A DNA stretch of 64,000 nt, from NCBI RefSeq assembly GCF_022045235.1, contig NW_027266308.1, forward strand, positions 39,556,001-39,620,000, written 5' to 3'. The translations under genes were made by a program, and so were the position numbers. Below, piece by piece: positions 1 through 43,460 of this stretch (position 1 is its first letter; each line of letters begins with the position of its first letter). The notes beneath the pieces are model-generated. The model saw only the letters and a list, made by a program, of their open reading frames with translations, was not told where the DNA came from and did not search any database. The stretch comes from Haliotis cracherodii (Eukaryota).

Positions 1-1329
1 CATGCTTACACATTTCACGAACACCTGTTGTGATCACTGATTTTCATTGACCCATTCATAGAATATTCCTGTTGCCTTTTACACTCAAAGATTTTCTCTG
101 GCGTTAACGTTTAATATTTTATACGTTTCGTTACATATTAAACGGCGAAGGTAAGTGGTCGTATGAATCTAAATTGATAACTGGAAATTATTGCCTTCTG
201 ACTCCCCAATAAGACCTACTTATGTGAAAGCGAACCATGGCTACTTGATGCCGTTTTATACCATTTTATATCGTTTTAATCTGTAGTGGAATTTGAGAGA
301 GTCATGCCTCAAATTTCTTCATTCAGACCTTCATTCACATTCTGACCATAAGCATAACCATAATCAACCACTTACTGGCAAGAAGTAATAATTTAATCAT
401 TTAAAATAAATCTTTAGATAACCTACAGATTTCTCCCTAAGATCAATTTAAAACTAATACGCCTTTGACGTCTACATGTGGAGGGCTAGGGAGGTTTAAA
501 ATATATTATTGTATGCAACATAGTCATGCTGTCTCAGTTTCTAATATCGGGTGGCCAAGTGGTCTAAGGCGCCGCAATTCCCTGTCGGGGTTGCGTCCCT
601 TGGGCACGCCAGGAACCTATGATTGTGGGGTCGAGTCCCGCTTCGCCCCGGTTATGTTTCTAGGTTTGTAAGCTCTCGGGTTTCACCATAGTGGTAAACG
701 TAACAATGCATGAATGTGGACAATTCGCTATTTTGTAATAATGTAACATTTGAAGTTGACAGACCAATATGCGAAACAGATGTATATTTGGATAACATTC
801 TTTGAAATAAATTGAAAGATTGGGTTCACAAAAAGCATAAAATGATCCTCATTTTCTGCAACAATACTATCAAAAGATGGAAACATGGATCATAATTGAG
901 CTAGCGAGACTCGAATCTTTTTTATCGTAGATATTCTTTCAGTATAAATTGTGTGAAGAGGGAATAGATATATGGACATTTGCTATTTCATAGTTTTCCC
1001 ATCCACATTTGCTGAAAAGCATCTTTAGCTCTTTGAAGCAAATATGCCACAACTATTCTTATATCTCCAAGAACCTCATCCATCTATGTGTATCCAAGGT
1101 GATTTTGATATATGTTGCCCAATTATTTTTATTGCGCGAGTGATTGGCATTTGGATCGAGATAAAATAGCCTTTTTAAGGTCTTTACTGGGTATCGCAAG
1201 ATGGAAGTAACGGCAGTTGTAACCGGTAATTTATCCAGCGATTGAGCGAAAATATATACAATGGCTATCTGCCACATCCCCCAAGTACAAAACCATTTCG
1301 GGTGGAGGATCGAACCTCAGTTTCGCGTT

Positions 1330-1620
1330 TACATTCAAAAGATGAACTTTTGCTGAGAAGTTGTTTCATCAAGGTTACAACATTCACGGCCAAAGTGAAG
1401 CTTTTTCAAAAAGTTTTATGGTAGACATGTGGAGGAGATTTCCAAATTTGACCCATCACTGACTGATGTCCGATGCAGTTCCCTATTTTGACCTGTACCA
1501 TATGTTCCCCTGTTTCTTTGCCTTTGCATGTGTTTGTGACGGGTGCCACCGGTAGGACAGGATACGCTCACCTTTTCGCGAACATCTGGTATCATCACTT
1601 CTTGATAGTGAATCATAAAC
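1330..1620 (+). mobile_element. 3' relic of the same Penelope-like family (other pieces at 1-60, 29255-29730 minus, 46178-46360, 60175-60290)
   Basis: Shared CAAGGTTACAACAT..TTTTATGGT.GACATGT..TTTCCAAATTTGAC and TGTGTTTGTGAC(G/A)GGTGCCACCGGT..CACCTTTTCGCGAACA. Confidence 0.65.
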
Positions 1621-1687
1621 GCATGCTCATGACATAGTCGGAATCGTACAAAATTTCTTATGAAATATGGTAAGGGTTTTGTAATTA

Positions 1688-2580
1688 TTGATGTGAAATA
1701 TTACAAAAGGAATATCCATTTACAGCTTAACCAAAGAGTACAAAAACTGTATTCAGTGACAGTCAAAGTATTAATTAATACGAAACAAGTATAACTTAGC
1801 ACGACCATGAACAAGGTTTAGTAAGATATGAAAGATTTTATGAACGCACCATCAGCTAAACATCTCAATGTTCATTTCAATCTTGCTAGTTTGAACAAAC
1901 GTTGTGACATAACAACACTAGTTGTCTTTAAACCCAGATAATATTAATACAATTTGTTCACGCGCCGTCACACACCAGAGTGAACAGATAGCAAAATCGC
2001 TAGTGATTATCTCAATAGCTCGGAGGAGTTAACGATCCACACCTATAATCCCTACTGCAACCAGCCTGTGCAAGCAATCTGTTAACATTGCAGACTTCGT
2101 GGCATGGGCGCAGATTAAAGGGATGGAAGTGTTGTCAAAACACATCCAAGCCCTGAAGAATCACAATTCGTTTATTTATGTTCCAGAGTAAGCAAGGATG
2201 CTTGCAATAGCCTTGCAACCACACGATTTCATTTCAGACCAACAGATTGGGGACAAACTTAATATAGATTGAAAACAACACCACTGCTCCCTGTATACTT
2301 ATCGTCTTAAGTCGTCTCTTAGACGACAAAATCGATAAACATCCATTCAGGATATCTCCGATAAGTAAGGCAATAAAAGGGGATATAGGATTGTGAATTG
2401 GAATTCTGGCAAGGAATTCTTGCCTAAGGTTTTGCCTACACTATTTCGTGAAATTTTCAAGCTAGATATGACGTTGAAATTGTTAATGTGACAAAAGTCA
2501 CACGAGGTTTCATTACAGGAACACGTATGGATGTTCACAATGCTCGTGAAGGCCTAGCTTGTATGGGTATTCGCAAGTAC
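1688..2580. repeat. Segmental duplicate A of the M4 gene 5' region (partner 10124-11089)
   Basis: Colinear shared strings, e.g. ATATCCATTTACAGCTTAACCAAAGAG, TTTTATGAACGCACCATCAGCTAAACAT, TTTGTTCACGCGCCGTCACACACCAGAGTGAACAGA, TTGGGGACAAACTTAA, ATTCGCAAGTAC. Confidence 0.92.
2043..2088 (-). CDS. Exon 1 (signal peptide, MLTDCLHRLVAVGII) of a tandem paralogous M4 protease whose main exon would lie left of the window
   Basis: Same length (46 nt), same ATG context and same AG|GTGTGG donor as 10447-10492. Codon differences are TTA/TTG, AGA/AGG and GTA/ATA. It lies within the duplicated block 1688-2580 ~ 10124-11089. Confidence 0.72.
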
Positions 2581-2924
2581 GTTGTGTACACTACAAAACT
2601 CGTTGTGTTCCCCATGTGGAAATCTGTGTCACTACACTATAGCCGCGAGGGTGGATTTATACGGTTTTTAGCCTCAACCAGAAGGGTTTGCGTAATAGTG
2701 AAGTCTTTAGTGATGGTATAGCTGTTATAATCAAATTGTGAAATCAGTCGTTTCAGGAAATGACTGACAGAAATAGTCACTTCTTGAAGTGACAAAAGTT
2801 GCGTGTCTGTTTTATATTACTTGACTGATACAATTCAGTCAAGTAGTGTAATCCATGAACAAAGAGCATTAATTGGTCCAATGTGCACATTGCTACTGGA
2901 CATGGTGGTAGAGACAGTTGTTTG

Positions 2925-3360
2925 GTTGCTTTGTTGTTTTACGAAGCACTAAGCAATTTTCCAGCTGTATGACGGCGGTCTGTAAATAATCGAGTCTGGA
3001 CAAGACAATCCAGTGATTGATATCATGAACATCGAGCCACGCAATTGGGTTCGATGACATGCATCAACCAAGTCAGCGAGCCTGACCACCCGGTCCCGTT
3101 AGTCGCCTCTTACGACAAGCATAGTCGCCTTTTACGGCAAGGGGTGGTCGGGTAGCCTAGTGGTAAAAGCGTTCGCTCGTCACGCCGAAGACCCGGGTTC
3201 GATTCCCGACATGGGTACATTGTTTGAAACCCTTTTCTGGTGTCCACCGCCGTGATATTGCTTGAATATTGCTAAAATCGGCGTAAAACCATACTCACTC
3301 ACTCATTCTACGGCAAGAATGGGTCGTTGAATACCTATTCTTACCCGGATCTTCACGGGT
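2925..3360 (-). mobile_element. SINE-like family A containing a nested SINE B (3141-3305, plus strand)
   Basis: The family A consensus is split at TACGGCAAG, which is duplicated around the SINE B. Confidence 0.9.
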
Positions 3361-4869
3361 CAAGGTCGAGACGGAATTGCTGACCACATGGGACAACATC
3401 TTGACAAACACAGTACAATGTTTCAAATCAATATGTTTGGAGGGAGTGACCACTGACAACACGTGTTGTGGTGAAGCCCATCTTGACCACTGGGTTCTGT
3501 TCCAGTGGACATGTTTACCTCAGGGACATGTAGTCAATGTGCCATGGTAACGTAAATGGATTATGGTCAAGAGACGCCGTATGGAATAACCTGCAGTTCC
3601 ATCAGGAGACAACGTTTCTGTTCCCATATCTATGGTAGATCGGGTTAGAGGTGTCATAGTGGACACAGTGAGTGCTTTTAACGGTATTTCAGTCATATCG
3701 CGGTTTGTCAGCTTAATGTGGGAGGAAAGCCCGAAGTGATACAGGTCTCAGACGTTTACCACTTCGATGAAATCAACAAGCTCGGGCATGGCGCTGACAA
3801 ACCTAGAAACATAATCGGGGCGAAACCACAATCACAAGCTTCTGGCGTGTCCAAGGGACGCAATTCTGCACAGAGTCTGAGTGTAACATATGTGAGTGTA
3901 AATAAATGCTGCGAATGAGTCTTTCTTTTTTTCTTTATTAATTATTCATTATGGAAACTGCTTAGTCATTTCAAGTAATATCTGGTAATAAATTTCAGTC
4001 ATTTCATGAAATGACTAGGAAAATGAGTCAGTTCAAGAAATGACATACCAAACTAATCATTTCACGAAATGGCATATTTCAAGAACTGACTTTTACCGAT
4101 CCACAAAACATTCAAATGAGAAAACTGTTTCGCTGTGACAAGTCAGTAGAATAAGCAGGGAATATTGGCTTTGGTAGTGCTCGTCAGAATAAAGTTGTGG
4201 ACTCGATAGTGCAGGCCCAATAGCCAGCTTCTACCTGGGATAAATATTACTGTTGTCATCTTTGCCGTTTAACGCCGTACTCAGAAATATTCCAGCTATA
4301 TGACGGTGGTCTGTGAATAATCAAGTCTGGTTGATATAAACCAGGGATTGAAATAATGTGCAACGTCGTCGGTGTCGTCGGTGTACGATGACGCGCAATC
4401 ACCGAGCCTGATCCATTCAGTCGCCTCTTACATCCGGCAGACGTTGGTGGGGACCAAAAGTTAAAGTTTGATGTACACAAACCATCATCAACACGAACTG
4501 AACAGTGACGTAAATATTTCATGCTTACTGATGTGAATGTCCTTAAATGGTCATTGCGTATGTATATACTTCTGTGTAGCCGTCATGGCTTTTACCATTC
4601 TGTTGTCGGATTTACACCCCAAGTTGAAGGGAAGATCAATGTTTCCAAATTTAAAACATTGTTTCGATATATTAGGCGTACAAACAAGCGTCATGCTTGC
4701 CCTTTTAGCTAGCACCTCGTGTCATCACTGATTGTCAGTGATCCATTCACATGGTTTTCACTGCTGATTTGCCTAACACGTCCAATGGAATCTGTTTCGT
4801 TGGAAAGTCGGGATTGGAAGCTCTCTGGTGTTGACGTTTTACATTAACATATCCTTTACATGTCTTTGA

Positions 4870-5115
4870 TTTCTAAGAGTTCTTAGATAGTCTGGGAACT
4901 AACGAACCAACAAGGTATATATCAACGGAGATGTTCTGTCATTACAGTATTTCATCTCTACAGTATTGTATGTGATTCTTTTAAAACGCGAAAGTGGGCT
5001 TTCCTTTGACGCTATTAGTGCGTCTCATCACTGAGACAATCGATTGTATTCCGGCGTGTTTCGCCTCAAATTCAATAAGTCAGATTCCAATGTCCCACTG
5101 AAACGATCCTCACAT
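4870..5115. repeat. Distal part of the same duplication (partner ~11885-12135)
   Basis: Shared CTAACGAACCAAC..GTATATATCAACGGAGA and TTCAATAAGT(C/T)AGATTCCAATGTCCCACTGAAACGATCC. Confidence 0.88.
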
Positions 5116-6042
5116 AAGTCTTTTATGTCCTTATATATTCCACAGGTGACTTTCATTCCCAAGGACTGGTATCAATATCGTTCTACATGATCTGTACAGG
5201 TTCTGCAATAATGATCAGAGACATACACTCAGTTTAAAGATGGGATTAAAGGCATGGGGTACAATGAGCATGCCATATCTTGCCAGGGCATATATCAATA
5301 ATCATGATCTGAGACCTTGTTCTTTGTGTAGAATCTACACAGGTTTGTGGTGAAGGTAATTAAATCAGCACCGGTACTTGAATGATATTACTTTAGATTG
5401 AACAATGAACGAGTAGAAAGTACGTCGTCGAGTATTTCAGTTTGGATTCCGAAATTTTGGTTTTGAAGAAAGAAACACATTTGGATTAAGGAAGGGAATT
5501 AATGAATGTCAACTTCTTTATTGTGAGGAACACAACGTTAACACACCAATAATGCATTCATCTTCGGTTATAACGAACTTCAAAAGCCAGCGTTATTAAA
5601 TGGGGAATTCGCTTCACCCGACTTCGAAATATATATATATAACACATATCATCAGACGGGTTGGTGCCATTGGAAACAACAATTGAAGGAAACAAGATGC
5701 ATGTATATCTTTGTAAGTATAAATAAATAAAGTTATGAGAAATAATCCTTTTATTACACGTAGTGAAAATGTTATAATAGCATAGCTTTTCCATACACTT
5801 TTCCAGTACGTGTAGCTACCAATATTTGCCTTTTCCTAGAATTATACAATACAGAATAGGAATCATTTATAGAACAAAATATACTGTCCAAATAGCATCT
5901 GAATATATATTAAAAATGAAGACATTTTTATTCTTTTCAAGCATAAATAGCGAGGGACATGGAAGCAAATATTGAACGTAGTATAAACTAATGTGATGTC
6001 TTACGAAGTTTGCCTGATACAAATAACTTTAAAGGATGATGG

Positions 6043-6275
6043 TCCCGTCGGGATTCCAGGTTAGAATTGGTCCCCAGCAACGTATGCTTGTCGTAGAAGG
6101 CGATTAAATGGATCGATTGGTCAGGCTTGGTGACTTGGTTGTCATCGTACCCCAACGGCGCGAGACACTGCACACAATATCATTGACCGGTCTGTCTGCC
6201 AGCCTCGATTATATACAGGCCGCCGTCACGTAGCAGGAATATTGATCATTGTGGCGTTAAACAACAAAGAAAACA
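6043..6275 (+). mobile_element. Divergent, probably older subfamily of family A (also ~9823-9985, 35220-35419 minus, 54020-54215 minus, 55833-56085, 63785-63850)
   Basis: Head variant GGGATTCCAGGTTAGAATTGGTCCCCAGCAAC with the same body and tail. Confidence 0.8.
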
Positions 6276-7302
6276 TAACAGGATTACAAAATGTACATGT
6301 GAATTGTTCTTCTCAATGCAAGGACAGACGTTGAAGAAATCAAGTGACTCCTATCTACCAAATGAATATAGATAAAGGTTTATTTGTATTATATGTAGTC
6401 GACGCGTCTAATTAATATATATAATCCCTTGGCAGGTAACAAAACATAATCTAGACACAACCCGAGAACGTTAACGTCTCAGTAATGTCTCTTGTAAATT
6501 TAGAGCTTTTACACAGTTTTTCAGCATGCGAGGCAGTTTCAGATGTACCTCATGTCCATTTCAGCAGGTTTTATTTTCGCTTTAGTTTAGTTTCCATCTG
6601 TTACACATGTAATAGACGTTTGTCAAATAAGGTATCAAGATGTGATCACGTTGAGTACATGTATACCGCCATGACAAAAGTCACGATATTCACACTTTCC
6701 ATGGCTGTCAGCGACACCAATTTTATAATGCTTTTCGCCACATATTCAAAGTTAAAAGTAAGTGGTCACACACATCCTAATTGATAACTGAAAATGATAA
6801 TTATGAGATTATAGCTTTGACGGTTTGATCAGTATTCGAAAAACAACTACCGTTTTGCAAAGGAGAACCAGGGACGTTCTTTTGAATACATTAAAGGATC
6901 AAAGAGAACGTCAATCCTGAAATGTTCTTTCTGTTGTTGTTTTGTATTTATCGATGGCAAACGAAAGCACTTCTCCATAACTTGTTTTGAGAATTTTAGT
7001 TATAAATTTTGTTATGTGAAAAGATTACCGATTTAAACAAATTATGAAAAATCTGCGGCCAAATTTCAAACCACACCACTATGCATCTCCAAAGAAAATA
7101 ACAGAATAGAGGAAAAAAGTGCTTTTCCCTTTGAGTATGTTTAGCTTTGATTCACGTCAGGGTGAAATGCATATTATCAGCAGCTAAAAGTACTGATACA
7201 AGGTTGCGAGGTCCCGCTTCGCCTCGCTTCGCCTCGCTTTATATTTAACACCAGTTCTTTTAAATCCTGATAGCATACTACCACCTATCCTGCTTCTGTT
7301 AT

Positions 7303-9227
7303 TCATGCATTTCCACATTCCTTGTTGTAGTACAAGGTGAACTTGTGGTTCGATGTCGAGTAGTTCTCTTGGCAAGTATATCCTGCAGTGAGGCCGACAT
7401 TTGTCGAGGCAGATCCCCCGGTTGACAGTCGGATGACGTAGAAATGCGGTCCTGCACCACTCACGTCATACGTGACGCGATTAGAGCTCTGGACCAGTGG
7501 AACAGTGGAGTCGTTAATCTGCTTCCATGGCTCACTGAACACCGTGATGGTTATATCATCTCCGCTGTCACTCGTTGCCTCGACGAGGATCTCCTTACTC
7601 CAGTCTGGCAGATCTATACCAAAAGCCGGACTGGATTCATTGGAGACGGTGATTTGGTCTTTAGTCCGGTTGAGCCTCAGATGGAGCAGGTGGTCTTCCA
7701 CATCACAAACTTCGATCCCAACCTCTTGGAACGCTCTAGCAAAAGGTTCTCCTGGTTGGCCCATGTCATAAGCTGCCTGCATCACATCACACGCTCCGCT
7801 GATAAAGTTGGTCATGGGTTGCCAGTACATCTTATTAGCATGGAGGAACACCCGGAAGACTTCCACAGGATTCAGGCCATATTCGTGTGCTAAGAGGTAG
7901 AACACCTTATTGTATATACCGCTCGTCGTGTGTGGAGACATTCTGTTTGAAAATTTATCCATGTGGGAAATCGATCTTCCATCCTTCTCAGGGTTGGCAA
8001 AGAACCGCATGGGCCGCCTGTACATAATGTCAGCACCAACCTGCCAGTCAGTAGCATTGTTGTACAATTCTGCCATTTCTCCAGTCATGTCCGAAAAGGC
8101 TTCGTTGAGTCCTCCTGACTGTCCAATGTAGATGAGGCCGGAATGTTGCTCGGTGAAACCATGGGCTATTTCATGGGCAGCAATATCAAGGGAAACTAGT
8201 GGATAGATAAATCTTCGCCTGCCATCACCAAAGGAAACGTTGTGGCCGTTCCAGAAGGCATTCATGACGTTTCGTGAAAAATGAACCCTGAGTGTGAGTC
8301 CTCCTCTGATTGGGTCTGTGTCGTACCACTCCTTGAACATCTTTACGATTTGAGTGCCATAGTACAGAGCATCTATAGCAGGTGAATATGCACCATTTAT
8401 ACTGTCATTAAGATTCCCAGCACAATCGAAACGTGCCACCCCCGTTGATCTCTCTATGGCTGAGTTGTTCATGTCAATCACTTTAACATGCTCATTTTCC
8501 AAATAGCATATTCCATTCTCTTGTCTTAAATCCAAACATCTATGAGTACCATCATAATGGATGATGCCTATTTTCTTATTTCCGCCGATCATTTCTTCAT
8601 CCTCCCTATCAAAGCAAGTCTCCAAGCTGTCAAAATAGGTCATAACTTCCCGAGTCCTCGTGTCGATGATACCCCTAGGACGTTTCTGAACATCATCAGT
8701 CTCAATTAAATATTCAACAATGGCAACATGATGGGCCACATCATGTTCGTCTGTGTATACCTCATACGCAATACTCCTACCTTTTATATCCCCCGTCCTA
8801 CTTTCGTCACCAGCATAAGCAATCAATATAGCAAACAACTCGTCTTCAGTGATGCTTCCTCTAGACTCGTCAACGTCTTCCTCAATGTTATTAACATAAT
8901 CTCCAGTAGCATCAACTACCACCCCGGACTCTTCAGTCATGGTCAATGTCACTGATGCGCCAAACACTTCTTCACCATGGTACCTTTCTTTCATTTTGAC
9001 CTGTCGAGTTCCTTGCACAGTGTTGGCTTCCTCCGTTTCCTGGAACGATTCCCCACCAGCTAGCTGGAACACCTCCCTCATGTTGCGGTTCCTGGTTGTC
9101 TCCGTGTCCCGGGCTGACCTCCTTCTGGTGTACCCTGGTACAACTTCAGGGAGGCCTTCGAGGAGTACCTGCCTTGCATTGACCCTCTTGGCCGCCTCTA
9201 TGTGATGGACACATACCGACAACAACA
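7303..9227 (-). CDS. Exon 2 (main exon) of a secreted M4-family (thermolysin/pseudolysin-like) zinc metalloprotease: FTP- and PepSY-like propeptide, catalytic domain, and a C-terminal PPC-like extension
   Basis: Motifs HEIAH (8161-8175), GGLNEAFSD, NAFWNG, FGDG, YPLVSLDIAAHE, NGAYSP, DGRSI, HTTSGIYN and GGNKKIG are colinear with Pseudomonas LasB and Vibrio vibriolysin. The frame is uninterrupted up to TGA at 7303-7305. Splice acceptor TTTATTTACTTGCAG has its AG at 9229-9228 (phase 1). The TTG start at 9300 in the ORF track is intronic. Confidence 0.95.
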
Positions 9228-10446
9228 CTGCAAGTAAATAAACGATGTTTGAATCAGGTACAGTGTAACACAGTGAAATCTGAAAACTGAAAAAGGACAA
9301 GGTATCACGGGGACCATTTTGGACAACATCATTTGCATATTTAAAGAAAGAAACATCATTTGCATATTTTTAAGAAGGAAACATTTAAATATTGTAATAA
9401 AAAATACCAGATGTGTAATTACGATGTGATGTGTTTCACAATGTGCAGATTAGGGAGAACAACATGTCACAGCTTTTTTAACAGCATCGTATGACTACGT
9501 CTTTATCTTTGCACACCCTTGTGCCAGACAGTTTAGGTTCATAGCACCGCATGTTTGTAGATAGAGCTGACGTACTAGGACGCGGTAGTTATTATTATAT
9601 GCCACCTTGCTGACCACGATTATATGGTTATATCACACCAGGCAAACCAGTGGTTGAGAGTATGAGCATTGCTCAACGCCGATGAGATACAATGACGCCC
9701 GATCAGCCAGATCACACATTGTTTTGGTAACAGCCAATCTGTAATGTAGCCTTCCCTCGAACCCCCAACCCCAAACTCCCTCCCCACCCCCAACCCCCAC
9801 ACACCTCACCCTCCCTCTCCACTGGTGAGAATTCCAGGTTAGAATTGATTTTCAGCAAACCCTTGAGACGACCAAATGGATCGGGTGGTAAGGCTCGTAC
9901 ACAGACGGCGTGCATGATTGCTAACAATTTCAATCAGTGGATTGTCTGGTCCAGCCTCAATTATGTACATGCCATCATCATGTGGTTGGAATGTGAGTTC
10001 GCTTTACTTGTCACAAAAAAAAATCACATAAAATCCCTTTTGTCTCTTACCAAAAACTTTTCTGACACGACGTCCCCCTGGGTTACAGATAACTAAACTT
10101 CCCATATTTTTTGCCTGTAAATATTGATGTGAAATGTTACTAAAGGCATATCCATTTACAGCTTAACCAAAGAGGAAAGAAACTCTATTCCGGGACAAAG
10201 TAATTAAGTCCACCAGCAAGGTTCAGTAAGATATGAAACATTTTATGAACGCACCATCAGCTAAACATTCTCAACGTGCATTCCAGTCTTGCTTGTTAAA
10301 TCAAACATTGTGACATAACAACACTAGTAGCTTTTAAAGTAAGACGATAAATAGAATTTGTTCACGCGCCGTCACACACCAGAGTGAACAGAAAGCAAAA
10401 TCGCTAGTAATTATCTTGAAAGCTCGGTGGAGGTAACGATCCACAC

Positions 10447-10492
10447 CTACAATCCCTACTGCAACCAGTCTGTGTAAGCAATCTGTTAACAT
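10447..10492 (-). CDS. Exon 1 of the M4 protease (start of signal peptide, MLTDCLHRLVAVGIV)
   Basis: ATG at 10492-10490, 15 codons + 1 nt, donor TAG|GTGTGG. Splicing to 9227 gives MLTDCLHRLVAVGIVVLLSVCVHHIEA-AKRVN, a typical signal peptide. The paralogous copy at 2043-2088 differs by only 2 synonymous changes and one V/I change. Confidence 0.8.
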
Positions 10493-10528
10493 TGCAGACT
10501 TCGTGGCATGGGCGCAGATTCTATGCCA

Positions 10529-10537
10529 ATATATAAA
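10529..10537 (-). promoter_or_regulatory. Candidate TATA box of the M4 gene
   Basis: TTTATATAT on the minus strand about 40 nt upstream of the exon-1 ATG. It is absent from the paralog. Confidence 0.35.
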
Positions 10538-11383
10538 CCCCCTGATTAAAAGGATGGAAGTGTTGTCAAAACACAACCGAGGGCTAAAGATATTACATGT
10601 CGTTCAATCACCGTTACAGATCAAATTAGGATGCTGGTAATAGCTTTATAACCACAAGACTTCATTTCAGACCAGCAAATTGGGGACAAACTTAAAATCG
10701 ATTGAACAAACACTACTGCTCACTGTATATTTATCGTCTTAAGCCGTCTCTAAGAAGACAAAATCGATAAAATAAGTGCCCATTCACGACATCTCCGATA
10801 ATGAATTTTCACAACCCGTCTACATTGATACACAGTGAAGGCAATAAAGGGGGAAATGGTATGAAATATGAAGTAAGATTGTAAATTGAGGTTCTGAAAT
10901 TGAATCAGGTTACCTGAACTGTTTGAATTAGGCGTTGTGCACGAGATCTATCAGGTGTTATTTCTTGATATTTTAATTTTGAAGCTAGATTGGCTTTGAA
11001 ATTGTTAATTTGACAACCGTCACGCGAGGCATCGTTCCAGTTTCATAACGTGCGTAAAAGATCTTGTTTGCATGGGCATTCGCAAGTACAGATAAACAGA
11101 ATCGGCGTGAACACCCTTATACACTGGTAATTTTGATACAAACAAAAAGCTTGATTTAAACTGAGAAGAATCCCTAGTAAGATGGGTGACACCTGAAATC
11201 TAGACTCGCTTCATTATGATGATTGCATTACTGTAAGGGCTGAGCGGAAGGGAAATAATATGGTTCAGGGACTGTGAGACAGAATACACGTTTGTGAACA
11301 GAAGGTGTTCAACGAAAGCATCTATTCCATAATGAACATGGGACTGAGGTGGTGTGTGGAGCAGTGAACGTGGATGGCATGAT

Positions 11384-11385
<2 letters not shown>

Positions 11386-11458
<73 letters not shown>
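11386..11458. repeat. (CA)n microsatellite
   Basis: Direct observation. Confidence 0.98.
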
Positions 11459-11462
<4 letters not shown>

Positions 11463-12789
11463 AAAGCGAGAAAAACCTTCCAGCTCTGCTTTTGTTCTCG
11501 AATTCTCGAATGCAGGGTTTTGGGCTGTGGTGTGTCTGTTCAGCAGAAGGATGTGTAAATTGTCAGCGTTGGTCCTTCGCATCAGCGTGTGCATAATATT
11601 TATGATGAACAAGAGTTAATGCTTCACTATTTATCAGTACCATGAAATAAAGTTAAATGCATGACATTAACGAGGGATAAATGTTCATTGCATGTATATG
11701 AAGGTCCAAGTAGTAGATATTTAATTTACTCTTCAGTTGACGGATTTATTCACGACGCTGAAGGAAACATTAATGTTTACATATCCCTTACGTTAATAAT
11801 ACTTATACAAGTATTTTGTTGACTGCGTCAATGAAGAAGATGTATTTCCAAAATTGAAAAAAACCCACCTTTTTTACACATCCTTGAGTTCTGAGACAGT
11901 TTTGTGAGCTAACGAACCAACGGAGTATATATCAACGGAGAATCTCTGGATGGGGACATACGATTATTTCGTCAATGCACTTTTGTATAGGATTTGGTTT
12001 AAAAGCATTTCCGTCGTAATCGCGAAACTGGCTTTCACTTTGACTCTTCATTGAGACTATCGATTGTACACCAACGTGATTCGCCTGACATTCAATAAGT
12101 TAGATTCCAATGTCCCACTGAAACGATCCACACATCAAAATGTATTTTTTTGTTCTTAGTCTACACTAAAGTGGAGACACGAGGGACTTTCTTTTCAGAA
12201 ATGATAACATTAATGTTTTTGAACATTGGGAAATTTCGATATTTTCTATTGGAACAACTTAATATCTCATCAAAAGAAAAAAAAAGTATCTTATTAGATG
12301 TTATTGATTTTAGATTAAATGTGTGTTTCTGCCATTCTGGTGGGCCCGAGTAGACAGATTGCCTGGTCCACGACAATTTTAGGCAGTGTAAGTTTTTAGA
12401 TAGCTAGTAAAGAAACGGATTCCTGGCAAAAAGCAGCGATTACCAGGAATAAACAATAAATAGGTGAGGACATATTATTGACCCAGAGTTTTGACATTAG
12501 AATACTTGCAATATGTGTTCCCCTCATTTATCACAGATACTCCACGTAATATGAGTTCCCTTACAGTGAATGATTGCGTGCGTGAGCGAGGAGTGAGTGA
12601 GCGAGTGAGTTTGGTTGAACACCACTTTGGACAATATTTCAGTTCCATCACGGCGTGATCGTGGGACCGCTGCATCAGCTATGTTTTCAAAACCAGTAAA
12701 TGTGTGAGTGTTGCAATATTCATGGGAAACCATGGTGACGCAATTATAGCGAGTCTGGCCAGTGGTTGATATCACACTCATCCAGGGTA

Positions 12790-25607: not shown

Positions 25608-25774
25608 GTGAGTGAGTGAGTATGGTTTTACGCCGTTTTTAGCAATATTCCAGCAATATCACGGCTGGGGACACCAGAAATGGGCTTCACACATTGTACC
25701 CATGTCGGGAATCGAACCCGGGTCTTCGGCGTGACGAGCGAACGCTTTAACCACTAGGCTACCAGACAGCCCCC
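25608..25774 (-). mobile_element. SINE B
   Basis: TSD CATGAATAGT. Confidence 0.92.
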
Positions 25775-25912
25775 ATGAATAGTACTAATATAATTAAATT
25801 GAATGATATTAATGGCCTGTAATGACCAAATAAATGAAATACTAAAGTATGAATAGTGTTTGCCCCCGCACACCATGATCCTATTTGTCCCGGCCACAAT
25901 TTTCAAAATGAG

Positions 25913-26080
25913 AGGGGCGGTCGGGTAGCCTAGTGGTTAAAGCGTTCGCTCGTCACGCCGTAGACCCGGGTTCGATTCCCGACATGAGTACAATGTGTGA
26001 AGCCCATTTGTGGTGTCCCCCGCCGTGATATTGCTGGAATATTGCTAAAAGCGGCGTAAAAACATACTCACTCACTCACT
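25913..26080 (+). mobile_element. SINE B
   Basis: TSD TCAAAATGAGA. Confidence 0.92.
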
Positions 26081-26764
26081 CAAAATGAGAAACACCAACA
26101 CAACGCAGATCATATGGTCCGCTTTAGTTCTGGAGATTTGTCCTCGTAGGAATTGGCTAAATATAAATAGATGATTCTAATACCTGTTCATCTGAATTAA
26201 GAGATAAATAAGAATCGACGCATTTTCTTCTAAACTGTAAACACACACATCAATATGTACTATCAAAAAATTATACAGTGATCTGCTCCAATTATGATTA
26301 ATGTACCCCTATATATTATGACATCATACTAACTACATGTGCAAAGGTCAGCGAAAATGAAGTCTGGGAGTTTAGCTGCTCGGAACTTTACTATCTAATC
26401 TATAAAGGCATTGACTGCTGAGGATCAGAAATGGCACCTGACGATGTTGTTATCACTATCAGCCTCTCATGCAATTAGCCCCCTCCCTGACCCCAAGTAT
26501 CCCTTTAACACGTGTACATGCTGGTAGCGCTAATTGGGTGGGCCCCGTATCCATAACACTGCTAATGCATCTGCCACAGAAACCAGTGATGATGTTCTTG
26601 AAGCACACATCTACAGCACCACCGCTACACGATGACAGCAGGGGTTGGGAAATTTATGTGATACTGTGTCTGTGTTAAACGTGAGCATCAAAACAAAGTG
26701 CTGGTACGGCCGTTGCGTGGAATGTTGGGGAGGAACCACACTGAGTATGTTTATATGTTTCGCA

Positions 26765-27064
26765 GAGTTTGTATAAGGCATGTTGTGTGAGAAGTATCAG
26801 AACCGTTATCGCTTTAGAATGGATCCGTCGGGGAATGCAGCTGCAGCAATAGGGAACGTATATATCAGAGAGTAGGCACGATATGGACTGCAGACAAAAA
26901 ACTTGGCTATAAGGGGATTATTCGTGAAATTCCTAGACTAATAGTGTACTTTGAAGATACTTTTTCAGATGTTATAGTGAAGCGGAACACAACTGGAAAA
27001 CTGCTGACGGAGACCTTTCACTCACTCACTCACTCACTACATCCTTTAATAATCAAATTGTTCT
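26765..27064. repeat. Local duplicate X1 (partner 32010-32263)
   Basis: Shared GTATAAGGCATGT, TGAGAAG.ATCAGAACCG, TGGACTGCAGA, AATTCCTAGAC and CTACATCCTTT.ATAATCAAAT. Confidence 0.9.
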
Positions 27065-27807
27065 TGTTTCATACCCTACTTTTGATTAAACATATCCCCA
27101 CATTACAACCTGGCTACAATTTAGTCGAGAAATATAGAAATGAATTCTTAGAAGTGTGATGTGCGTGTAATGCACACGGCACGCACTTGGAATTAAACCA
27201 CACCAACGCTTGAATATCCTGTGACCTCCTGCAAGGTGTGAGTGCACTACCATAACGCTACAGAGGAGTCAACAATGGTGCAATTAGGTGAAATCTACTC
27301 GGAAACGTGTGTAAAAATAACAATCGTAAGGAAACAGTTTTTATCTGGCTATCAGCATGTTCCTTCCTAACTGTGCATTAGCGGTGACATCCATGCGTAA
27401 TGAGCCCATTGCTGAAATTTACTGGAGGTTCTAAATGCGAAAAAGCACGCTGTTTTGTGCCAATAGCAGAAATGTCCGAACTTTGGAGAGAGGAAAACAG
27501 GATACTTTTTCGGAGTTAGTTAAGATATATCTAACAGCGGTTTCTGCTAAAACTCACCAGTGTAGTAGAGGATCAACCAGAGGACGTGTTTAAGTGGATT
27601 ATTTTTGTGCATGTGCTTCCAGTAACCATTAGGGTGAACAAATTGATTCGGTCTGGAAATGACAAAAAATGAAATGAGAAACTATGTCTTTAGTAAGTAG
27701 AAATCTGTAGATAAACCCTTGTTCGCTTGTGGAAGCAACAGACACGCGCCGTCGGGATAACTACCAACCAGATAATACACTACGGCTGGCCTTCCTTTGT
27801 GGTTAAG

Positions 27808-28074
27808 AACCGTGAAGATTCCGGGGTAGAATAGGTCTTCAGCAACCCATGCTTGCCGTAAAAGGCGACTATGCTTGTCGTAAGAGGCGACTAACGGGAT
27901 CGTGTGGTCAGGATCGCTGACTTGGTTGATGTCATCGATCCCAATTGCGTGGATCGATGTTCTTGATATCAATCACTGGATTGTCTGGTCCAGACTCGAT
28001 TATTTACAGACCGCGGTCATATAGCTGGAATATTGCTGAGTGCGGCGTTAAACAATAACAACCAACCAACCAAC
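27808..28074 (+). mobile_element. SINE-like family A (headless, structured 5' end), full-length copy
   Basis: ACCGTGAAGAT(T)CCGGGGTAGAATAGGTCTTCAGC...CTGGAATATTGCTGAGTGCGGCGTTAAAC with (AACC)n tail. TSD TTGTGGTTAA. Confidence 0.92.
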
Positions 28075-28218
28075 CCTTGTGGTTAACCATCCAAATACTT
28101 GCCAAGCTCAGCAGTCATCGCTCCGATTCAGTCACCTTTGAGTAGCCACTTACGGGGAATGAAGACAATATTCAGGACACAAATTAATATCGATATTTTG
28201 ATATATATGTAAAACTAA

Positions 28219-28385
28219 GTGAGTGAGTGAGTATGGTTTTACGCCGCTTTTAACAATATTCCAGCAACAACACGGCGGGTGACACCAGAAATCGTCTTCA
28301 CACATTGTACACTTGTCGGGAATCGAACCCGGGTCTTCGGCGAGACGAGCGAACGCTTTAACCACTACCGGCTACCGACCGCCCC
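28219..28385 (-). mobile_element. SINE B
   Basis: Matches the consensus. Confidence 0.88.
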
Positions 28386-29409
28386 TGCAAAACCAAAAGC
28401 CAGGTCATATTTGAAGGAAACATACTACTTTCATCATCTGCGCGCCTTTGTGAGGGGTCATCTTAATTTCTCTGTCTAAGTTACGTGTTTAAATGTGAAA
28501 GGGCAGCAGGTGTGTATATTGATTTAGAGTATATGTACAGCCTATTTCTTGACATAAGTCACATTTTTAGTCCCTTCCTAATACAGTTATCATGACAATA
28601 AGAATGGTATGATTGATTTCCAGTAATGACTCACCGTAGGAAATGATGAATAAAACACAGTTTTGTCAATATAATTTATTACTTGAATTCTTGAGACCAA
28701 AATGTTCGGAAATGAGACATTGACACTTCTAAAATGATATACCCTGTATTTTTGCGGTGATATGCCCTCAAAGAAATGATAGTCAATACAAATAGACTAT
28801 TAAAATACCTCTTTCTGTAGGTTTGAAGAGGTAAATGTAGAAGCATCTTTTCTACAACATAATACAAACATCTACTGCAAACTGTATAATAAGAAATTAA
28901 TACAACATTTGTTTCCGTTCCAGATAAACTAAGTGTACCTACGTGCATAATATGATACAACATTAACTACCGCGTGCATAAGTAAGCGAAAATAAAGCCA
29001 GTGGGTTTAGGTGCTTGAGGTTGACTTTCTTACCTTTCAGGGCAGGCATTTCAGGATCGGTGATGAAGTGTGGCAAAAAGTTATGAGTCTCACTACGAAG
29101 GATGTATATAAATAAATGCAACAAAACCCGATTCATAATCACCAGAAACCTGTCCATTGTACCGTTCCGATTATATCATGAAGATGTGTTTATGGATCAT
29201 ATGCTGCCCCACCAGTGGCTCCACATGCAGAGGCAAGTACATTTTTCACCTAAAAAGACTAGAAAATATGGGAATTGCATACGGACATCAATTTAGTCAC
29301 TGATGCGTCAAATTTGGAAATGCCATCAACATGTCCACCATAAAACCTTTCGAAATCTTTATTAAGGGCTTGGATGTTGTAACCTTGATCGAACAACTTT
29401 TGAGAAAGA

Positions 29410-29655
29410 TTGGTTGGTTGGTTGGTTTGTTGTTTAACGCCGCACTCATCAATATTCCAGCTATATGACGTCGGTCTGTAAATAATCGAGTCTGGACCAG
29501 ACAATCCAGTGATTGATATCATGAACATCGATCGATTTGAGATACGATGACATGCATCAACCAAGTCAGCCACCCTGACCACCCGATCCGGTTAGTCACC
29601 TTTTACGGCAAGCATGGGTTGCTGAAGACCTATTCTAACCCGGATCTTCACGGGC
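29410..29655 (-). mobile_element. SINE-like family A, full-length copy
   Basis: TSD TTTTGAGAAAGA. It interrupts a Penelope-like relic. Confidence 0.92.
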
Positions 29656-29892
29656 ATTTTGAGAAAGAAGCGTATGACGCTCTTTGAAATCTTTGTAGCA
29701 ACAACATGCTCGATTGTACCTCAAAATTTGTAAAGTGTAAACACTAAAGGCAGGAGCTGCGCGCAGGAATGTTTCTTGACATAAAAGGAAAGTTGATGTC
29801 ATCCTTGTTGTCATACAATCTTCTTGACAGTTTCTGTGTACACCCTTTACAGTTTATGTAATGTTATAAGTACAGTACGTTCCCTGCTTACA

Positions 29893-30171
29893 GGGGGCAC
29901 GGATGGCCCAGTCGTCATAAGCGCCGTGATTCGCTGTGCAGAGTTTCGTCCCTTGGACACGCCAGAAACCTACGATTGTGGTTCGAATCCCAATTCGCCC
30001 AATTATGTTTCTAGGTTTGTCAGCACCATACCCGTGCTCGTGGGTTTCACCGAAGTGGTAAATGTCTGAGACCTGCATCACTTCGGGCTTTCCTCCCACA
30101 TTAAGCTGACACGCCGTGAAACAACTGGAATACTGTTAAATGCGGCCTTAAACCCAACTCACTCACTCACT
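29893..30171 (+). mobile_element. tRNA-derived SINE C (long A-B box spacing)
   Basis: GGGGCACGGATGGCCCAGTCGTC..GGTTCGAATCC..CTGGAATACTGTTAAATGCGGC, (ACTC)n tail. Confidence 0.9.
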
Positions 30172-30189
30172 CCAACAACCATCAATGCG

Positions 30190-31655
30190 GACATGGTGTC
30201 AACTTTAGAGGATGGTGCACATTCCTTTGACACTGCTAAAATGTGACCACTGGGGCCGAGAGGGGCTCACAGATGAGCCAAGAGCAGGAAGTCCTCAACT
30301 AACACCTCTAAGGTGAATGTTGATAGAATACATGACATGATTATGGAAGATCTATGACTCACCACGCGTCACATATCATATACAGTACGCATCTCTCATA
30401 CGAGAGATGAGAATACTCTGAGGAATAAACTGGGCATGATATAGGTTTCAGCATGCTGGGTTTCAAGGCTTCTGACGCCTTAGGGACCGATCATTTGGTA
30501 TTCTTAGGGTGGTATTTATCGATATAAGGTATTTATCAAAAAAATATTTTGTTATTGTAAACTATGAGCCTGACTTTTAAAGGAAAAACATCTTGCAACA
30601 ATGTATTTTTTGTGACAGGCAAATTCTATTATTTTTAACGGCTTGAAGCATGAATAAATTATTTTTTCAATAATTATGGTGGGTTCCATGTCAGATACGC
30701 TCCATGTTCATCATCTCTTTAAAGAATCTACATGGTCTAGGAGCCGACCCAGCTGATTTTGTTGAGTGATTTGTAACCATGGATGAGTCTTGAATTCACC
30801 ACTATCAGCCAGAGACTAAACAACCGTCATTGAAGTAGAAACATTTGACGTCTCCTCCGAAGACGAAGGCTAAGTTTCATCAGCTGGCAAGGTGGTAGCT
30901 TTGGCGGATTACCTCCCGAAAGATCAGACCATTAGTGGCCAATATTATTCTGTTCTCCTTAGGCAACGACCGGATAATATCAAGGCTACAGGTCGCAGCA
31001 GAGGACATCATGAAGTGTGTTGTTGCACCAGGACAATGTACCCGTGCACAACTCTGTTGTCCCCATGGCTGAAATGCATGAGTGAGTGAGTGAGTGAGTT
31101 GGGTTAACGCCGCTTTTAACAGTGTTCCAGTTATATCACGGCGTGTCAGCTTATTGTGGGAGGAAAGCCCGAAGTGATGCAGGTCTCAGACGTTTACCAC
31201 TTCGGTGAAACCCACGAGTACGGGTATGGTGCTGACAGACCTAGAAACATAATCGGGGATAACCGGCATTCGAACCCACAATCATAGGTTTCTGGCGTGT
31301 CCAAGGGACGCAACTCTGCACAGCGAATCGCGGCGCCTTCGACGACTGGGCCACCCATGCCCCCTGCAATGCATGACTGTGGCTATGAATTCAATGAACA
31401 TCCACCATATTCACTAGATTTGGTACCCTTCCCAAAATTGAGGAAAATACGGTCTGGCAAGCATTATTTAATTTCTGCTGAAAAGGACTTCTTGCAGCAA
31501 CACGAGGAAGCCTTTTACACCAGTGGGATCCAGGCACTCCAGCATTGTTGACAGATGTGCGTGGACCTAGTGGATTATGGTGAACAATAATTAGCATCAA
31601 ACTCAACCTAAGCAGTCCATCATAGTTAGGCTCAGAACTTTTAAGTCACCCATCA
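30190..31655 (+). pseudogene. Degenerate mariner transposase, interrupted by SINE C (31080-31365) and an AT-rich insert (~30481-30700)
   Basis: Fragments WVSRLLT, FVTMDES*IHHYQPETKQ, LHQDNVPVH and HPPYSLDLVP, with stops and frameshifts. Confidence 0.88.
31080..31365 (-). mobile_element. SINE C inserted in a mariner relic
   Basis: TSD AATGCATGA. Confidence 0.92.
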
Positions 31656-33441
31656 ACCTTAACCGCGGAAGACATCGCCAAGCATTCATTCCACATGTTT
31701 GGGTATTGTCTTTGGTGCTATTCCCATTTTATGCAGGTAAGTAATCACAGTTCGTTTCTCAGTTTTCTCCAGATAGTCATCATAGTAAGCTCTATAACTT
31801 TCGACGCAATTTCTTCTAAACTGCAAATACACAACCCGTTTCAATATGTATTATCAGAAATATGTTCAGTGGTCCGCTCAAATTAAGATTAATGTACCCC
31901 AAAGCAGACGGGGCGGACATTGCACCCATGGGGGAAATCGAACCCGGGCCTTCGACGTGACGAGCGAACCCTTTAACCACTAAACTACCCTACTACTCCT
32001 TAAAGCAACGAGTTCGTATAAGGCATGTCAGGTGAGAAGCATCAGAACCGCTATGGCTTTAAAATAGAGCCGTTGGGCAATGTAGTTGCAGCAATAGGAA
32101 ACATACATGCAAGGAGGTCGGTACGACATGGACTGCAGAAAAACATACATGGTTATTGGAGGATTATTTTTGGAATTCCTAGACAAATGATGAACGGAGC
32201 GGATGACTTGGACCTTAATCAACATTCACTCACTCTCTACATCCTTTTATAATCAAATAGTTCTAGACTTTTTCTTTAACTTTTTTCGGAAAAAATTATT
32301 CATTTTAGATGGGTCCACATAGAAACCAATCTTCTTACCAGGACTTAGACCAAAATGAGATGATACATATACTGTTAACATTTGATGTGCGAACCGATAT
32401 AATATCGTCAACTTATATCGCACAGTATAGGGGTGGTGGGGTAGTGGGGTAGTGGTGAAGGTGTTGGTACGTCATGCCGAAATCTGGGTTCGTTCCCGTC
32501 ATGGGTAATGTGAGTGGTGCCTATCCGTGGCACTTCTGGAATATTGCTAAAGACGGCGTTAAACCTCTCACTCACTGTGTAGATAACTGGGTTATGACAC
32601 TCGTGGAAAGAAGGAGCTTGTGTAAATAAATGTTAGGAAATTTATGCGGTAAGTTATGCTGTAAATACAGCTTATTTCGTGCACTTAAGCACATTTCTTC
32701 AAGTGAAATATAGTTCATATTTTTTACATGAGATGCTAAGCAACAAATACAGTATTTATTTCAGAATTTACGAGACAAATAAACATAATATTTGAGAACG
32801 TGCATTGACTTGTGTATTCTTTATGTGCATGGAAACGTACATCTCTGAGAGCTACTTGTAACATTGTTTAATGTGTTTAAAGCCAAACAGTCATATATCA
32901 TTGGCAGTAGATTTATTACCAGTACTGTCTGACTGCATTCAAGCAATAACGTGGTATTTTCCTATAGCTTACAGCTTCCTTGGAATGTACAAACACGACT
33001 CCAGACAGTTACATCACTACTACACCTCCTTTACCGACTAGAGAGCTGATGGTGAAAGGTTCGGTCCCTTTTTGGCTATTCTTATTCCATTGTATGACTA
33101 GACATCATAGATATTTATCAAAAGGGCATTATAAAAACAAAACATCATTTTTTCATGGAAAGGTTCCGCTGAAGTAAAACGTACGGAAGCCTGTTAGGGA
33201 CATTAAATAAATATAGACATGTCAATTTAGTCAATTCAGCAGACGCGACGTCTGACTGGAGCTCCATAACTAATATGAAAACATTACCGGTGTTTGTAGC
33301 TACAGTACCGTGATTAAAATGTAACCTCAGTTGACAATGGTCGTGGTTTCTTATTGTCAGAGGGTTCATCTCATAGGTCACAATCGTGTACTCGAGCTCA
33401 TTGCGTCAGTAATTTCATCACAGCACTTGTTTCATTAGAGA

Positions 33442-33661
33442 GCCGTGAAGATCCGGGTTAGAATAGGTCTTCAGCAACCCATGCTTGTCTTAAGAGGGGA
33501 CTAACGGGATCGGGTGGTCGTGCTCGCTGACTTGGTTGATGTATGTCATCGTATGCCAAATGCGTGGATCGATGCTCATGATGTCAATCACTGGAGTGTC
33601 TGTTCCAGACTCCATCAAATTCAGACCGCCGTCATATACCTGGAATATTGCTGAGTGCGGC
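33442..33661 (+). mobile_element. SINE-like family A
   Basis: Matches the consensus; tail lost. Confidence 0.87.
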
Positions 33662-34121
33662 CTATTTACCTCGTTAAAATCTGTGCTGTTTTCGTAATAA
33701 CCTACTGCGATATCAGAAGATGTAGTTAGATACACATAGACATCTCATTTCGGAGGTAAGCCTGACGGCTTTACCGTTGCAGCCTAAATAGTATACAATT
33801 GCCCTCTTTTAGATCTTACTATCTCGGCTTTTCCCAGACAATGTCTTTAAGTAGCATAAGATTTGTCATGACCTCTTAACGCCAACGCCGACTCGTCTTG
33901 TACAAATGGACCAAATTGGTCGTAAAGAGACCATGACAGACGGCCGTCGAATTGCCATGCTGGTTTAAGCATGCTATCAAAGGTCGTGAGCTTACACCAG
34001 TGACAAGGCACAACATATTTTATGAGGAAGAAGACAAGCGCTATGCCGGGCCTGATCCTGAATAAAAACCTTATCAAAGACTTTCATACTCATGTCAGTA
34101 TCATACAGTGAACAATATATA

Positions 34122-34381
34122 GTTTGTTTGTTTGTTGTTTAACGCCGCACTTAGCAATATTCAAGTTATATGGCGGCGGTCTGAAAATGATCGAGTCTGC
34201 ACCAGACAACCCAGTGATTGACGTCATGAACATCGATCAAATTGGGATACGATGACATGCATCAACTAAGTCAGCGAGCCTGACCACCCGATCCCGTTAG
34301 ACGCCACTTACGACAACGTAGTCGCCTCTGTCGGCAAGTATGGGTTGCTGAAGACCTATTCTACCCGGGATCTTCACGGGT
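34122..34381 (-). mobile_element. SINE-like family A
   Basis: Matches the consensus. Confidence 0.88.
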
Positions 34382-36136
34382 GTCCTTACTTTTAAAATTT
34401 CATGAAGGTTTACGTCATTGATAATATATTAACTGATATCACCAAGTTCATTAATTTAATATGTTACATCTGTATATGTTTAGCCCTAGCCTGAAATCGT
34501 GATTGAGAATATATTTACGTCTTCTTCATCATTGTTATTCTACCACACGCGATGATTCCTTTTGTCAAAGACGATATGACACAAACATTTGTATATTAGT
34601 ATGAAGGTTACTTTAATAATTATGAATCCGGATCTTTACGGGGCGAAAACTATATGAATAGTTCGTGAATATTTACAGATGATTCTTATTCAAATAAACC
34701 GCAAGCGGAATCCGTGGTAGAATAGGTCCCAAGCAACCCATTTTTTGTCCACTATAGACCGGGCAGTCAGGTTCTGTTCACAAAACATCAATCACCCGTT
34801 TGCTGGCCCAGGCTTGAATCTGTTTAGAGAGACCGCCACGAAAAAGCTTGTATTTTGCAAAGCTACATCAACTTAGTATTGATGTACGGAGATAGTGTTA
34901 TTATCATGCCCTGCCCTAGCCCAGTGTAAAGAACGGATTTGAACGAGTGAGTGAGTTGGGTTTAACGCCGCTTTTAACATTATTCCAGTTATATCGCGGC
35001 GTATCAGCTTAATGTGGGAGGAAAGGCCGAAGGGATGCAGGTCTCAGACGTTTACCACTAACAAACCTTGAAACATAATTGGGGCGAACAGGGATTCGAA
35101 CCCATAATCATAAGTTTCTGGCGTGTCCAAGGGACGCAACTCTGCACAGCGAATCGCGGCGCCTTAGGCGACTGGGCCACCGGTGCCCCCTGGAATCCCT
35201 CAGCAATGTTCTATCTATAGCTATACGACAGAGAACTGTAAATAAACGAGGCTGGAACAGACAATCCAATGATTGATATTGTGAGCAACGATGCACGCCG
35301 CTAGGGTACGATGACACGCAATCAACCAAGTCACCGAGCCTGAGAACCTTCTCCATATGATCGCGGCTTGAGGACGTCGTAGGTTGCTGGGGACCAATTC
35401 TAAACCGGAATCCACGGGGATGAACGTAGACATACGATGTACTTTAGCGATAGTAAAATCCTTTGCAAGGTTTAGAACGTAATTAATAGACCAACGCCGT
35501 CGTAATTAAGACATATTATAATACCCCCGCGCTGGTTATTATTGCATACATATTCATATTTTTTTGGTTATTAAGTCACTGTGACATTTCGGTTCGAATG
35601 GAATTTGACCTCACACGTAACACGTATTGATATAACCGATAGGAGACCATTAATAGATTAAAAGTTTCACACTTAGCATGGCCAATTAAGGACACATGTA
35701 CCTACTTGACGTTATGACGTATTAATAACACTGGCTTGTGATAGGAAATGTGCACTTATATATATATATTTGATACGACAGCAGTGCCCGAATCGTAATG
35801 AATGTACTTACGTACCATGCCGTGTCATTGAACAGTTGAACTGGAGCTGGCACAGGGAAGGTCGCTGACGGTTTAATGTAAACTAGGTACTTGAAGCCCA
35901 ACTTTTCACATTCTTGTTTTCAGACACACGACGAGCATTGATTCGGCAACGTCACGAGAAATCTATGTGACAACGTAAGGCAACATTAATTTTGATCATT
36001 TATCATATTGTAGTTATTTGGAGTACACAAATGCTGGACTTCTTCTTTGATAAAGTCTTTGAGAAGAGGTAGACATCCCTGGTGGGACAAGTTGTGCTCC
36101 TCTTCTTGCTTAACTGTTTCTTTATGCACGTGACTA

Positions 36137-36397
36137 GTGAAGATCCGGGGTAGAATAGGTCATCAGCAACCCATGCTTGCTGTCAATTGTGACTATGCCC
36201 TTCTGTATGAGGCGTCTAACAGGATCGGGTTGTCAGACTTGCTGACTTGGTTGATGCATGTCATCGTATTCCAGTTGCGTGGATCGATGCTCATGATATC
36301 AATCACAGGATTGTCTGGTCAAGACTGGATTATTTACATACCGCCGTCATACAGCTGGAATATTGCTGAGTGCGGCTTTAAACAACGACAAACAAAC
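36137..36397 (+). mobile_element. SINE-like family A
   Basis: Matches the consensus. Confidence 0.87.
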
Positions 36398-36742
36398 TTA
36401 AGCAGACGTAGATTAGGATGGGGTACAAAATATGTTTGAACTGGCAACGGATAACGCTTCTCACCAAAGGCGCCTCGCAAGACGCTCAAAATTATGCCTC
36501 AAAACAATTCGGCGGGCCAAGTTATCGTTACAAACGTGTTCGACCCGTGAAGATCCACGGGCCCCCATTCTTGTAAGAGGCGACTAATGGGATCGGGTGG
36601 TCAGGCTCGCCGACTTCGTTGATGCATGTCATCGTATTCCAACTACGTAAAACGATGCTTTTGATGTGAATTTCTGCTCGGGTTTGCAAATTCAGAACAA
36701 GGGAATTTGGATCAAGAGATTTAACATAATCAGCATCAAGTA

Positions 36743-37968: not shown

Positions 37969-38060
37969 TATATAGAAGATCTGATATCGTTTGTTTACTA
38001 ACGGTCAAATAACCAATTCCCTTCCTTTGATTTACCCTATACCTGGAAATGTAGGTGACC

Positions 38061-43427: not shown

Positions 43428-43460
<33 letters not shown>

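Follow-up and report, generated by a model that had tools for sequence, protein, structure and literature searches.

The best solved relative of the protein considered here is the elastase of Pseudomonas aeruginosa (pseudolysin, LasB), whose pro-form (pro-elastase, 8cr3) matches it with E=3e-86 over residues 67-518, a span that takes in both the pro-region and the catalytic domain. In M4 peptidases, the roles of the HExxH zinc motif, the third-ligand Glu and the catalytic His are set out in PMC7851659. The closest named relatives are Haliotis 'elastase-like' proteins, namely RefSeq XP_071079671.1 of Haliotis cracherodii, from which our two-exon model shows no protein difference, and XP_046369928.2 of H. 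rufescens, to which it is 98% identical. The gene in question lies in a stretch of 64,000 nucleotides (nt) of the H. cracherodii genome, referred to throughout as the window (G000:C45:39556001-39620000, where G000 is the species' own assembly). Negative coordinates run leftward from position 1, and the 100 kb of fetched flanking sequence that carries them contains zero N.

The window also contains blocks of sequence that occur in two copies. In a preliminary description these were read as duplicated signal-peptide exons of an M4 protease, with the true start codon of the intact gene at 10492 and the main exon of a paralog just left of position 1. Our analysis leads to a different picture. The matching blocks are most probably the remains of a head-to-tail duplication, about 7 kb in length, of an abalone M4 gene; the left copy lacks a coding exon and is probably dead, whereas translation of the intact gene begins at ATG 19376, in a first exon joined to position 9227 of exon 2 by removal of a 10.1-kb intron.

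Structure and start of the intact gene

The single long open reading frame (ORF) of the window (7303-9369, minus strand) carries both Pfam M4 domains, with scores of 103.7 bits for Peptidase_M4 and 99.9 bits for Peptidase_M4_C against curated Pfam thresholds of 22.4 and 24.4, respectively. The features of the gene are listed below.

19416..19425, minus strand: TATA-like motif 39 nt upstream of ATG 19376 (from the sequence), a putative promoter element
19346..19376, minus strand: supported first exon, coding part, 31 nt that encode MMASSVLWVA with one nucleotide left over; the donor is GTGAGT (contig X4; equals the RefSeq model)
9228..19345, minus strand: intron 1, 10,118 nt, harbouring the right-hand copy of the duplicated blocks (contig X4 junction)
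9229-9228, minus strand: splice acceptor of exon 2, AG, phase 1 (from the sequence)
7303..9227, minus strand: main coding exon (exon 2) of the M4 (thermolysin-family) zinc protease (ORF; Pfam PF01447 and PF02868; contig X4 ends at 9227)
7303-7305, minus strand: stop codon of the M4 gene (ORF)
5821..7302, minus strand: 3′ untranslated region (3′UTR), minimum length (single contigs, with X4 spanning 5821-9227 and X6 5821-9220)

Evidence for the first exon came from sequencing runs, 17 of 21 of which were guessed to be RNA, with none recorded as such; contigs of four guessed-RNA runs were aligned to positions 1-14000. These contigs span the coding exon and 3′UTR and stop at 9220-9227. X4 alone is informative for the junction. 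When aligned to a narrow stretch, X4 stops at 9227, the first base past the AG, and leaves 24 unaligned letters that equal 19346-19369 exactly, this being their single match in the window (0 of 100 shuffles did as well). The same 24 letters had no match in any of 37 other loci searched. The remaining contig ends (X2 at 9173 and X6 at 9220, neither with a loose end, X1 at 9224 and X12 at 9225) hold no junction information, and a run that is not of RNA type, X18, passes the acceptor at 9227/9228 uninterrupted. Past 19346 lies the GTGAGT donor, and the frame opened by ATG 19376 yields 651 amino acids. The resulting two-exon model (19376-19346 joined to 9227-7303) agrees with XP_071079671.1 (P0121) in every letter, the same first exon opens the H. 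rufescens and H. asinina orthologs, and the RefSeq models of all three Haliotis species agree with an exon at 19346-19376. The supported start of the M4 gene is thus ATG 19376, spliced over the 10.1-kb intron to 9227, and not the start at 10492, some 9 kb away, that had been put forward; the RefSeq annotation of this gene is already correct, so that any correction of the start codon returns the one already in RefSeq.

With respect to the product, the protein carries HEIAH at 362, NEAFSD at 385 and SPHTT at 441, each aligned with pro-elastase, and its pro-region aligns to pro-elastase as well; the signal peptide was assigned by eye. The predicted product of the intact gene is a secreted zinc endopeptidase made in pre-pro form, and the phase-1 intron interrupts the part that encodes its putative signal peptide, as it does in all 13 mapped paralogs.

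Extent and anatomy of the tandem duplication

Two block pairs, originally given as 1688-2580/10124-11089 and 4870-5115/11885-12135, form a real, local tandem duplication as described, the extent of which is larger than first drawn. Over 1680-2580 and 10116-11089, 735 of 850 aligned columns are identical, with 175 gap columns, and over 4877-5133 and 11886-12158 the figure is 205 of 240. DNA searches of the own genome with each pair returned two copies and no others, a copy number that is a lower bound because such searches skip common words. Sensitive alignment extends the match to seven collinear anchors, all of which keep their order and orientation (-1791/5250, -1006/5700, 116/6720, 1680/10116, 2442/10959, 4544/11678 and 4877/11886), placing the left edge at about -1791. 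Each anchor has a single partner within the 464 kb searched, save for one 45-nt overlap with a segment at -20.3 kb. The anchors at about 65-73% identity are based on local BLAST, with no genome-wide count behind them; in the own-genome search with 5240-5930 the left copy was not returned and a repeat end of about 55 nt was dominant (scores were given for the best 40 of 429 candidates), and 6480-7300 used as a query in the same way found nothing but itself. The anchors define two head-to-tail units of about 7 kb each, -1791..5133 and 5250..12158, meeting near 5134-5249. Their parts are as follows.

5250..5916, plus strand: left end of the right unit, in which 5250-5426 pairs with -1791..-1618 and 5700-5916 with -1006..-793 (G000:C45:39554209-39555207; sensitive alignment)
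116..191, plus strand: 3′UTR remnant of the left unit, matching 6720-6798 (73%, E=3e-9 in 464 kb; sensitive alignment)
545..1651, unstranded: interspersed repeats at the position expected for the left unit's coding exon; 710-1345 has 65 matches elsewhere in the genome (repeat searches)
1680..2580, plus strand: intron 1 remnant of the left unit, matching 10116-11089, with a gap-free core at 1951-2112 that has 10/162 mismatches (alignment)
10116..11089, plus strand: right-unit counterpart of this remnant, within intron 1 (alignment; own-genome search)
4544..4650, plus strand: remnant within the left unit; its partner (68%) is 11678-11784, of which the initial 45 nt overlap the segment copied at -20.3 kb (sensitive alignment)
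4877..5133, plus strand: right end of the left unit, matching 11886-12158, with the unit junction placed at about 5134-5249 (alignment)
11886..12158, plus strand: right end of the right unit (alignment)

The left unit retains 3′UTR and intron remnants. In the right unit the coding exon falls within 6798-10116, and the counterpart interval in the left unit, 191-1680, is filled by repeats over 545-1651. Six paralog queries run over -46,100..7,290 detected no M4 coding relic, the sole match being the first exon, at -18,276, of the next M4 gene to the left (L002), which is that gene's own. The main exon of a paralog that had been placed just left of position 1, and looked for within roughly 20 kb, is absent over 46 kb that hold no N, and within that distance the left unit has nothing coding to splice to.

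Unequal crossing-over, birth-and-death evolution of gene families and the unprocessed pseudogene are general concepts within which these remains can be placed. An unequal crossing-over would have copied the 3′ flank, 3′UTR, coding exon and the 2.9 kb of intron 1 next to it, excluding the promoter at 19.4 kb. The left copy would later have lost its coding exon, where repeats now lie, and also, by slippage between GATT repeats, a 27-nt TATA-like piece, if the direction of that indel is read correctly. A 46-nt ORF present in both copies may simply have been carried along as intron sequence.

Several observations weigh against this account. The splice junction depends on one contig from one guessed-RNA run, with 24 letters on its short side, and the RefSeq gene models are predictions. 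The former coding exon of the left unit is deduced from flanking anchors alone, with zero coding letters surviving. The mismatch rate across blocks is uneven, from 0.06 to 0.28, and the main block is better conserved than the rest (83/650 mismatches vs 194/907 elsewhere, P=1e-5). Finally, the 162-nt core (1951-2112) with its 10 mismatches is more conserved than a uniform rate would give, with a permutation P of 0.0005 against all blocks and of 0.043 against the main block, for a window size that was chosen post hoc. Uneven divergence together with a conserved core is not predicted by a purely neutral relic. Gene conversion or an intronic enhancer could account for the conservation of the core.

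The 46-nt stretch and the readings that depend on it

Because the gene starts at 19376, copy B of the 46-nt stretch sits inside the 10.1-kb intron and copy A lies downstream of the gene.

2043..2088, minus strand: copy A, downstream of the M4 gene and without the TATA-like piece (alignment)
10447..10492, minus strand: copy B, the 46-nt candidate exon (MLTDCLHRLVAVGIV, donor GTGTGG), which the supported model puts within intron 1 (alignment)
10517..10543, unstranded: 27-nt piece between GATT direct repeats, with a TATA-like motif at 10526-10535, 33 nt upstream of ATG 10492; missing in the left copy (alignment)

The stretch is as the preliminary description had it: both copies are gap-free, run from ATG to G|GT, and differ by three changes (TTA/TTG, AGA/AGG and GTA/ATA, the last V/I), all of them transitions. 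The purifying selection proposed for it could not be demonstrated. Among windows of 46 columns in the block, 79 of 676 are gap-free with three or fewer mismatches, the binomial probability of at most 3 mismatches in 46 is 0.17, and that of at least two of three changes being synonymous is 0.17 when every kind of change is allowed and 0.36 when transitions alone are. The 46-nt ORF is conserved no more than the surrounding block. Three changes afford no power for a ratio of nonsynonymous to synonymous rates (dN/dS). The depth of guessed-RNA contigs from the four runs was 0 over 10275-11208 and did not exceed 0.15 over 1869-2335; since contigs can only reveal presence, these depths carry no weight here. 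In further searches, a 28-nt core pattern had 0 matches in metagenome contigs, and Rfam over 1-21000 gave two hits, one tRNA-like and one on a CA repeat that stayed below threshold, with none on the 162-nt core.

The strongest competitor to a decayed duplicate treats copy B as a real alternative promoter with its first exon, one that is of minor use, confined to certain tissues or no longer active. On this view the duplication would have copied a small but complete gene, the 7-kb unit, and copy A would be a pseudogene that has lost its TATA box and coding exon; a main start at 19376 is compatible with all of this. We regard this as possible though rather doubtful. The phase of copy B, 1, suits the acceptor at 9227 and yields a hydrophobic leader, and its donor is GTGTGG, whose T at +4 contrasts with a purine in 13/13 mapped paralogs. 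The motif TATATATTGG precedes both start codons, ATG 10492 by 33 nt and ATG 19376 by 39 nt, and this 10-mer has a count of 4 in 164 kb over both strands. The region upstream of copy B ranks 13th of 3709 ATGs for resemblance to the true promoter; this resemblance is modest (score 31, equalled by 22/2644 windows) and centred on the 10-mer, and copy A shows no homology to the true promoter (309/500 shuffles score as high). Copy B is also the one candidate of 4703 in 568 kb that combines a TATA motif, a hydrophobic end and AG|GT, but these criteria were picked after copy B had been seen, and the true exon 1 fails AG|GT. Conservation of the 162-nt core around the candidate exon favors this reading, whereas the 46 nt themselves are conserved no better than the adjoining intron-side bases. 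In terms of precedent, the paralog L003 has two first exons in the own genome, with both isoforms annotated in three other species, and other tandem units of the family have introns of 0.27-1.7 kb. The copy B isoform occurs in 0/5 members of two ortholog clusters, a weak objection since the second exon of L003 exists in the genome and yet is unlisted for the matching species, and an N-terminus like that of copy B was found in 0 of 259 fetched proteins (best 6/15). The one splice junction observed uses 19346, and contigs cannot demonstrate the absence of a 10446-to-9227 join. If copy B proved to be in use as an alternative first exon, the locus would offer an example of promoter turnover, small in scale but open to testing.

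A bolder version takes the 162-nt core as the conserved second promoter and signal-peptide exon of a bacterial-type protease, with copy B as an alternative leader and copy A, having outlasted its own coding exon, perhaps feeding the neighbouring paralog 48 kb away; paralogs of an enzyme family that was probably acquired horizontally would in effect have exchanged promoters. We consider this combination unlikely. Its last element on its own, in which copy A was captured as a distant upstream first exon of the neighbouring M4 gene L002, 48 kb away, through a phase-1 acceptor, is highly improbable. The phases are compatible, the ATG and GT of copy A are intact, introns of 10-35 kb are known in this M4 subfamily, and capture would account for conservation in both copies. 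Set against this, copy A is without the TATA-like piece, MRNYI opens 5/5 proteins in the L002 cluster, which come from five species, and no positive evidence for capture was found. Least credible is the original model, in which an intact paralog immediately to the left has copy A as its first exon and 10492 is the true start; it correctly described the blocks and three changes and is right that an M4 gene lies leftward on the same strand, but that gene is 46 kb distant, 46% identical in protein, common to H. asinina and equipped with its own first exon, and contig and RefSeq favor 19376 over 10492.

The M4 family in the abalone genome

A six-frame search of the own genome returned 14 M4 matches (25/25 candidates scored). 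On the left side the closest of these is L002, which starts at a distance of about 46.2 kb from position 1 and is 46% identical; its own first exon, 31 nt at -18,276, encodes the RefSeq N-terminus MRNYIFFLTI and ends G|GTAAGA. All 13 mapped paralogs share a first coding exon of 25-55 nt, a phase-1 intron and one large uninterrupted exon, a count that leaves out a 14th query, taken from another species and having no exact mapping. The suggestion that the protease has expanded into a tandem cluster applies to the family rather than to this locus: tandem arrays with short introns are found elsewhere in the genome, at C45:39.119-39.148 Mb (39119140-39147422, four genes) and C34:20.664-20.730 Mb (20664475-20729043, six genes), and the two pairs that were compared within arrays share 97-98% identity. 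The duplicate described here most likely represents ordinary gene turnover rather than a new paralog, one more probably dead tandem copy in a family with at least 13 annotated genes.

Two further members were observed in passing. L003 has two alternative first coding exons, at G000:C45:41592999 and 41608606, which precede its main exon by about 19.7 and 35.3 kb; the more distant of them equals the H. rufescens X2 isoform exactly, and such an isoform is unlisted for the matching species. L014 (G000:C12:51785545-51785925) is an isolated partial M4 match (query 312-440, 49%) with an open frame of 182 amino acids, either a fragment or part of a multi-exon gene.

Several repeats were also noted. 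A tandem repeat array at 6510-8200 of the locus L015 obscures the left end of the duplicated unit, and further arrays lie at 46895-47626 and 61159-61456 of the window. The segment 11386-11722, around a CA repeat, has an inverted 90% copy at -20,344..-20,683, 2 kb upstream of the L002 first exon. The tRNA-like hit (Rfam tRNA, 30 bits; 3146-3217) belongs to a many-copy repeat at 3141-3308 that is nested in another repeat. Broken ORFs at 13574-14008, 37299-37626 and 43830-44622 presumably resemble Tc1/mariner transposases.

Molluscan M4 proteases

In a quick, unrooted tree of 67 catalytic regions hand-chosen from named hits, the focal gene, L002 and L003 each pair with their own H. asinina ortholog, and therefore the duplications among the three predate the split of H. 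cracherodii and H. asinina. One branch (SH-aLRT 100) separates 44 molluscan rows from 23 bacterial rows. Bacterial-type M4 proteases were found in gastropods, bivalves and cephalopods, and the molluscan enzymes are possibly the result of an old horizontal transfer, to which the unrooted tree gives no direction. A literature search, thin on subscription journals, found no title addressing molluscan M4 gene structure. The duplication as it stands is of small significance. The broader pattern may merit a study of its own: vibriolysin-like M4 proteases form a clade in molluscs, and in abalone 13/13 mapped genes combine a short first exon with a single uninterrupted coding exon.

Comparison with known systems

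Relative to LasB and other vibriolysin-type M4 proteases, the abalone enzyme retains the key catalytic positions, in that the HExxH motif, third ligand and catalytic His all align. Unlike LasB, its gene has a spliceosomal intron within the signal peptide, and the protein has a C-terminal extension of about 130 residues that has no Pfam match. Within the same subfamily, L003 (RefSeq isoforms X1/X2), with its short phase-1 first exons, is a precedent for two promoters; its two first exons carry the consensus donor GTAAG and are represented by annotated isoforms, and copy B has neither. The left unit differs from a typical unprocessed (duplicated) pseudogene in being recognisable from non-coding anchors only, its coding sequence gone, and resembles one in lying adjacent to the intact gene in the same orientation, in keeping intron and untranslated sequence, and in having decayed by indels and repeats.

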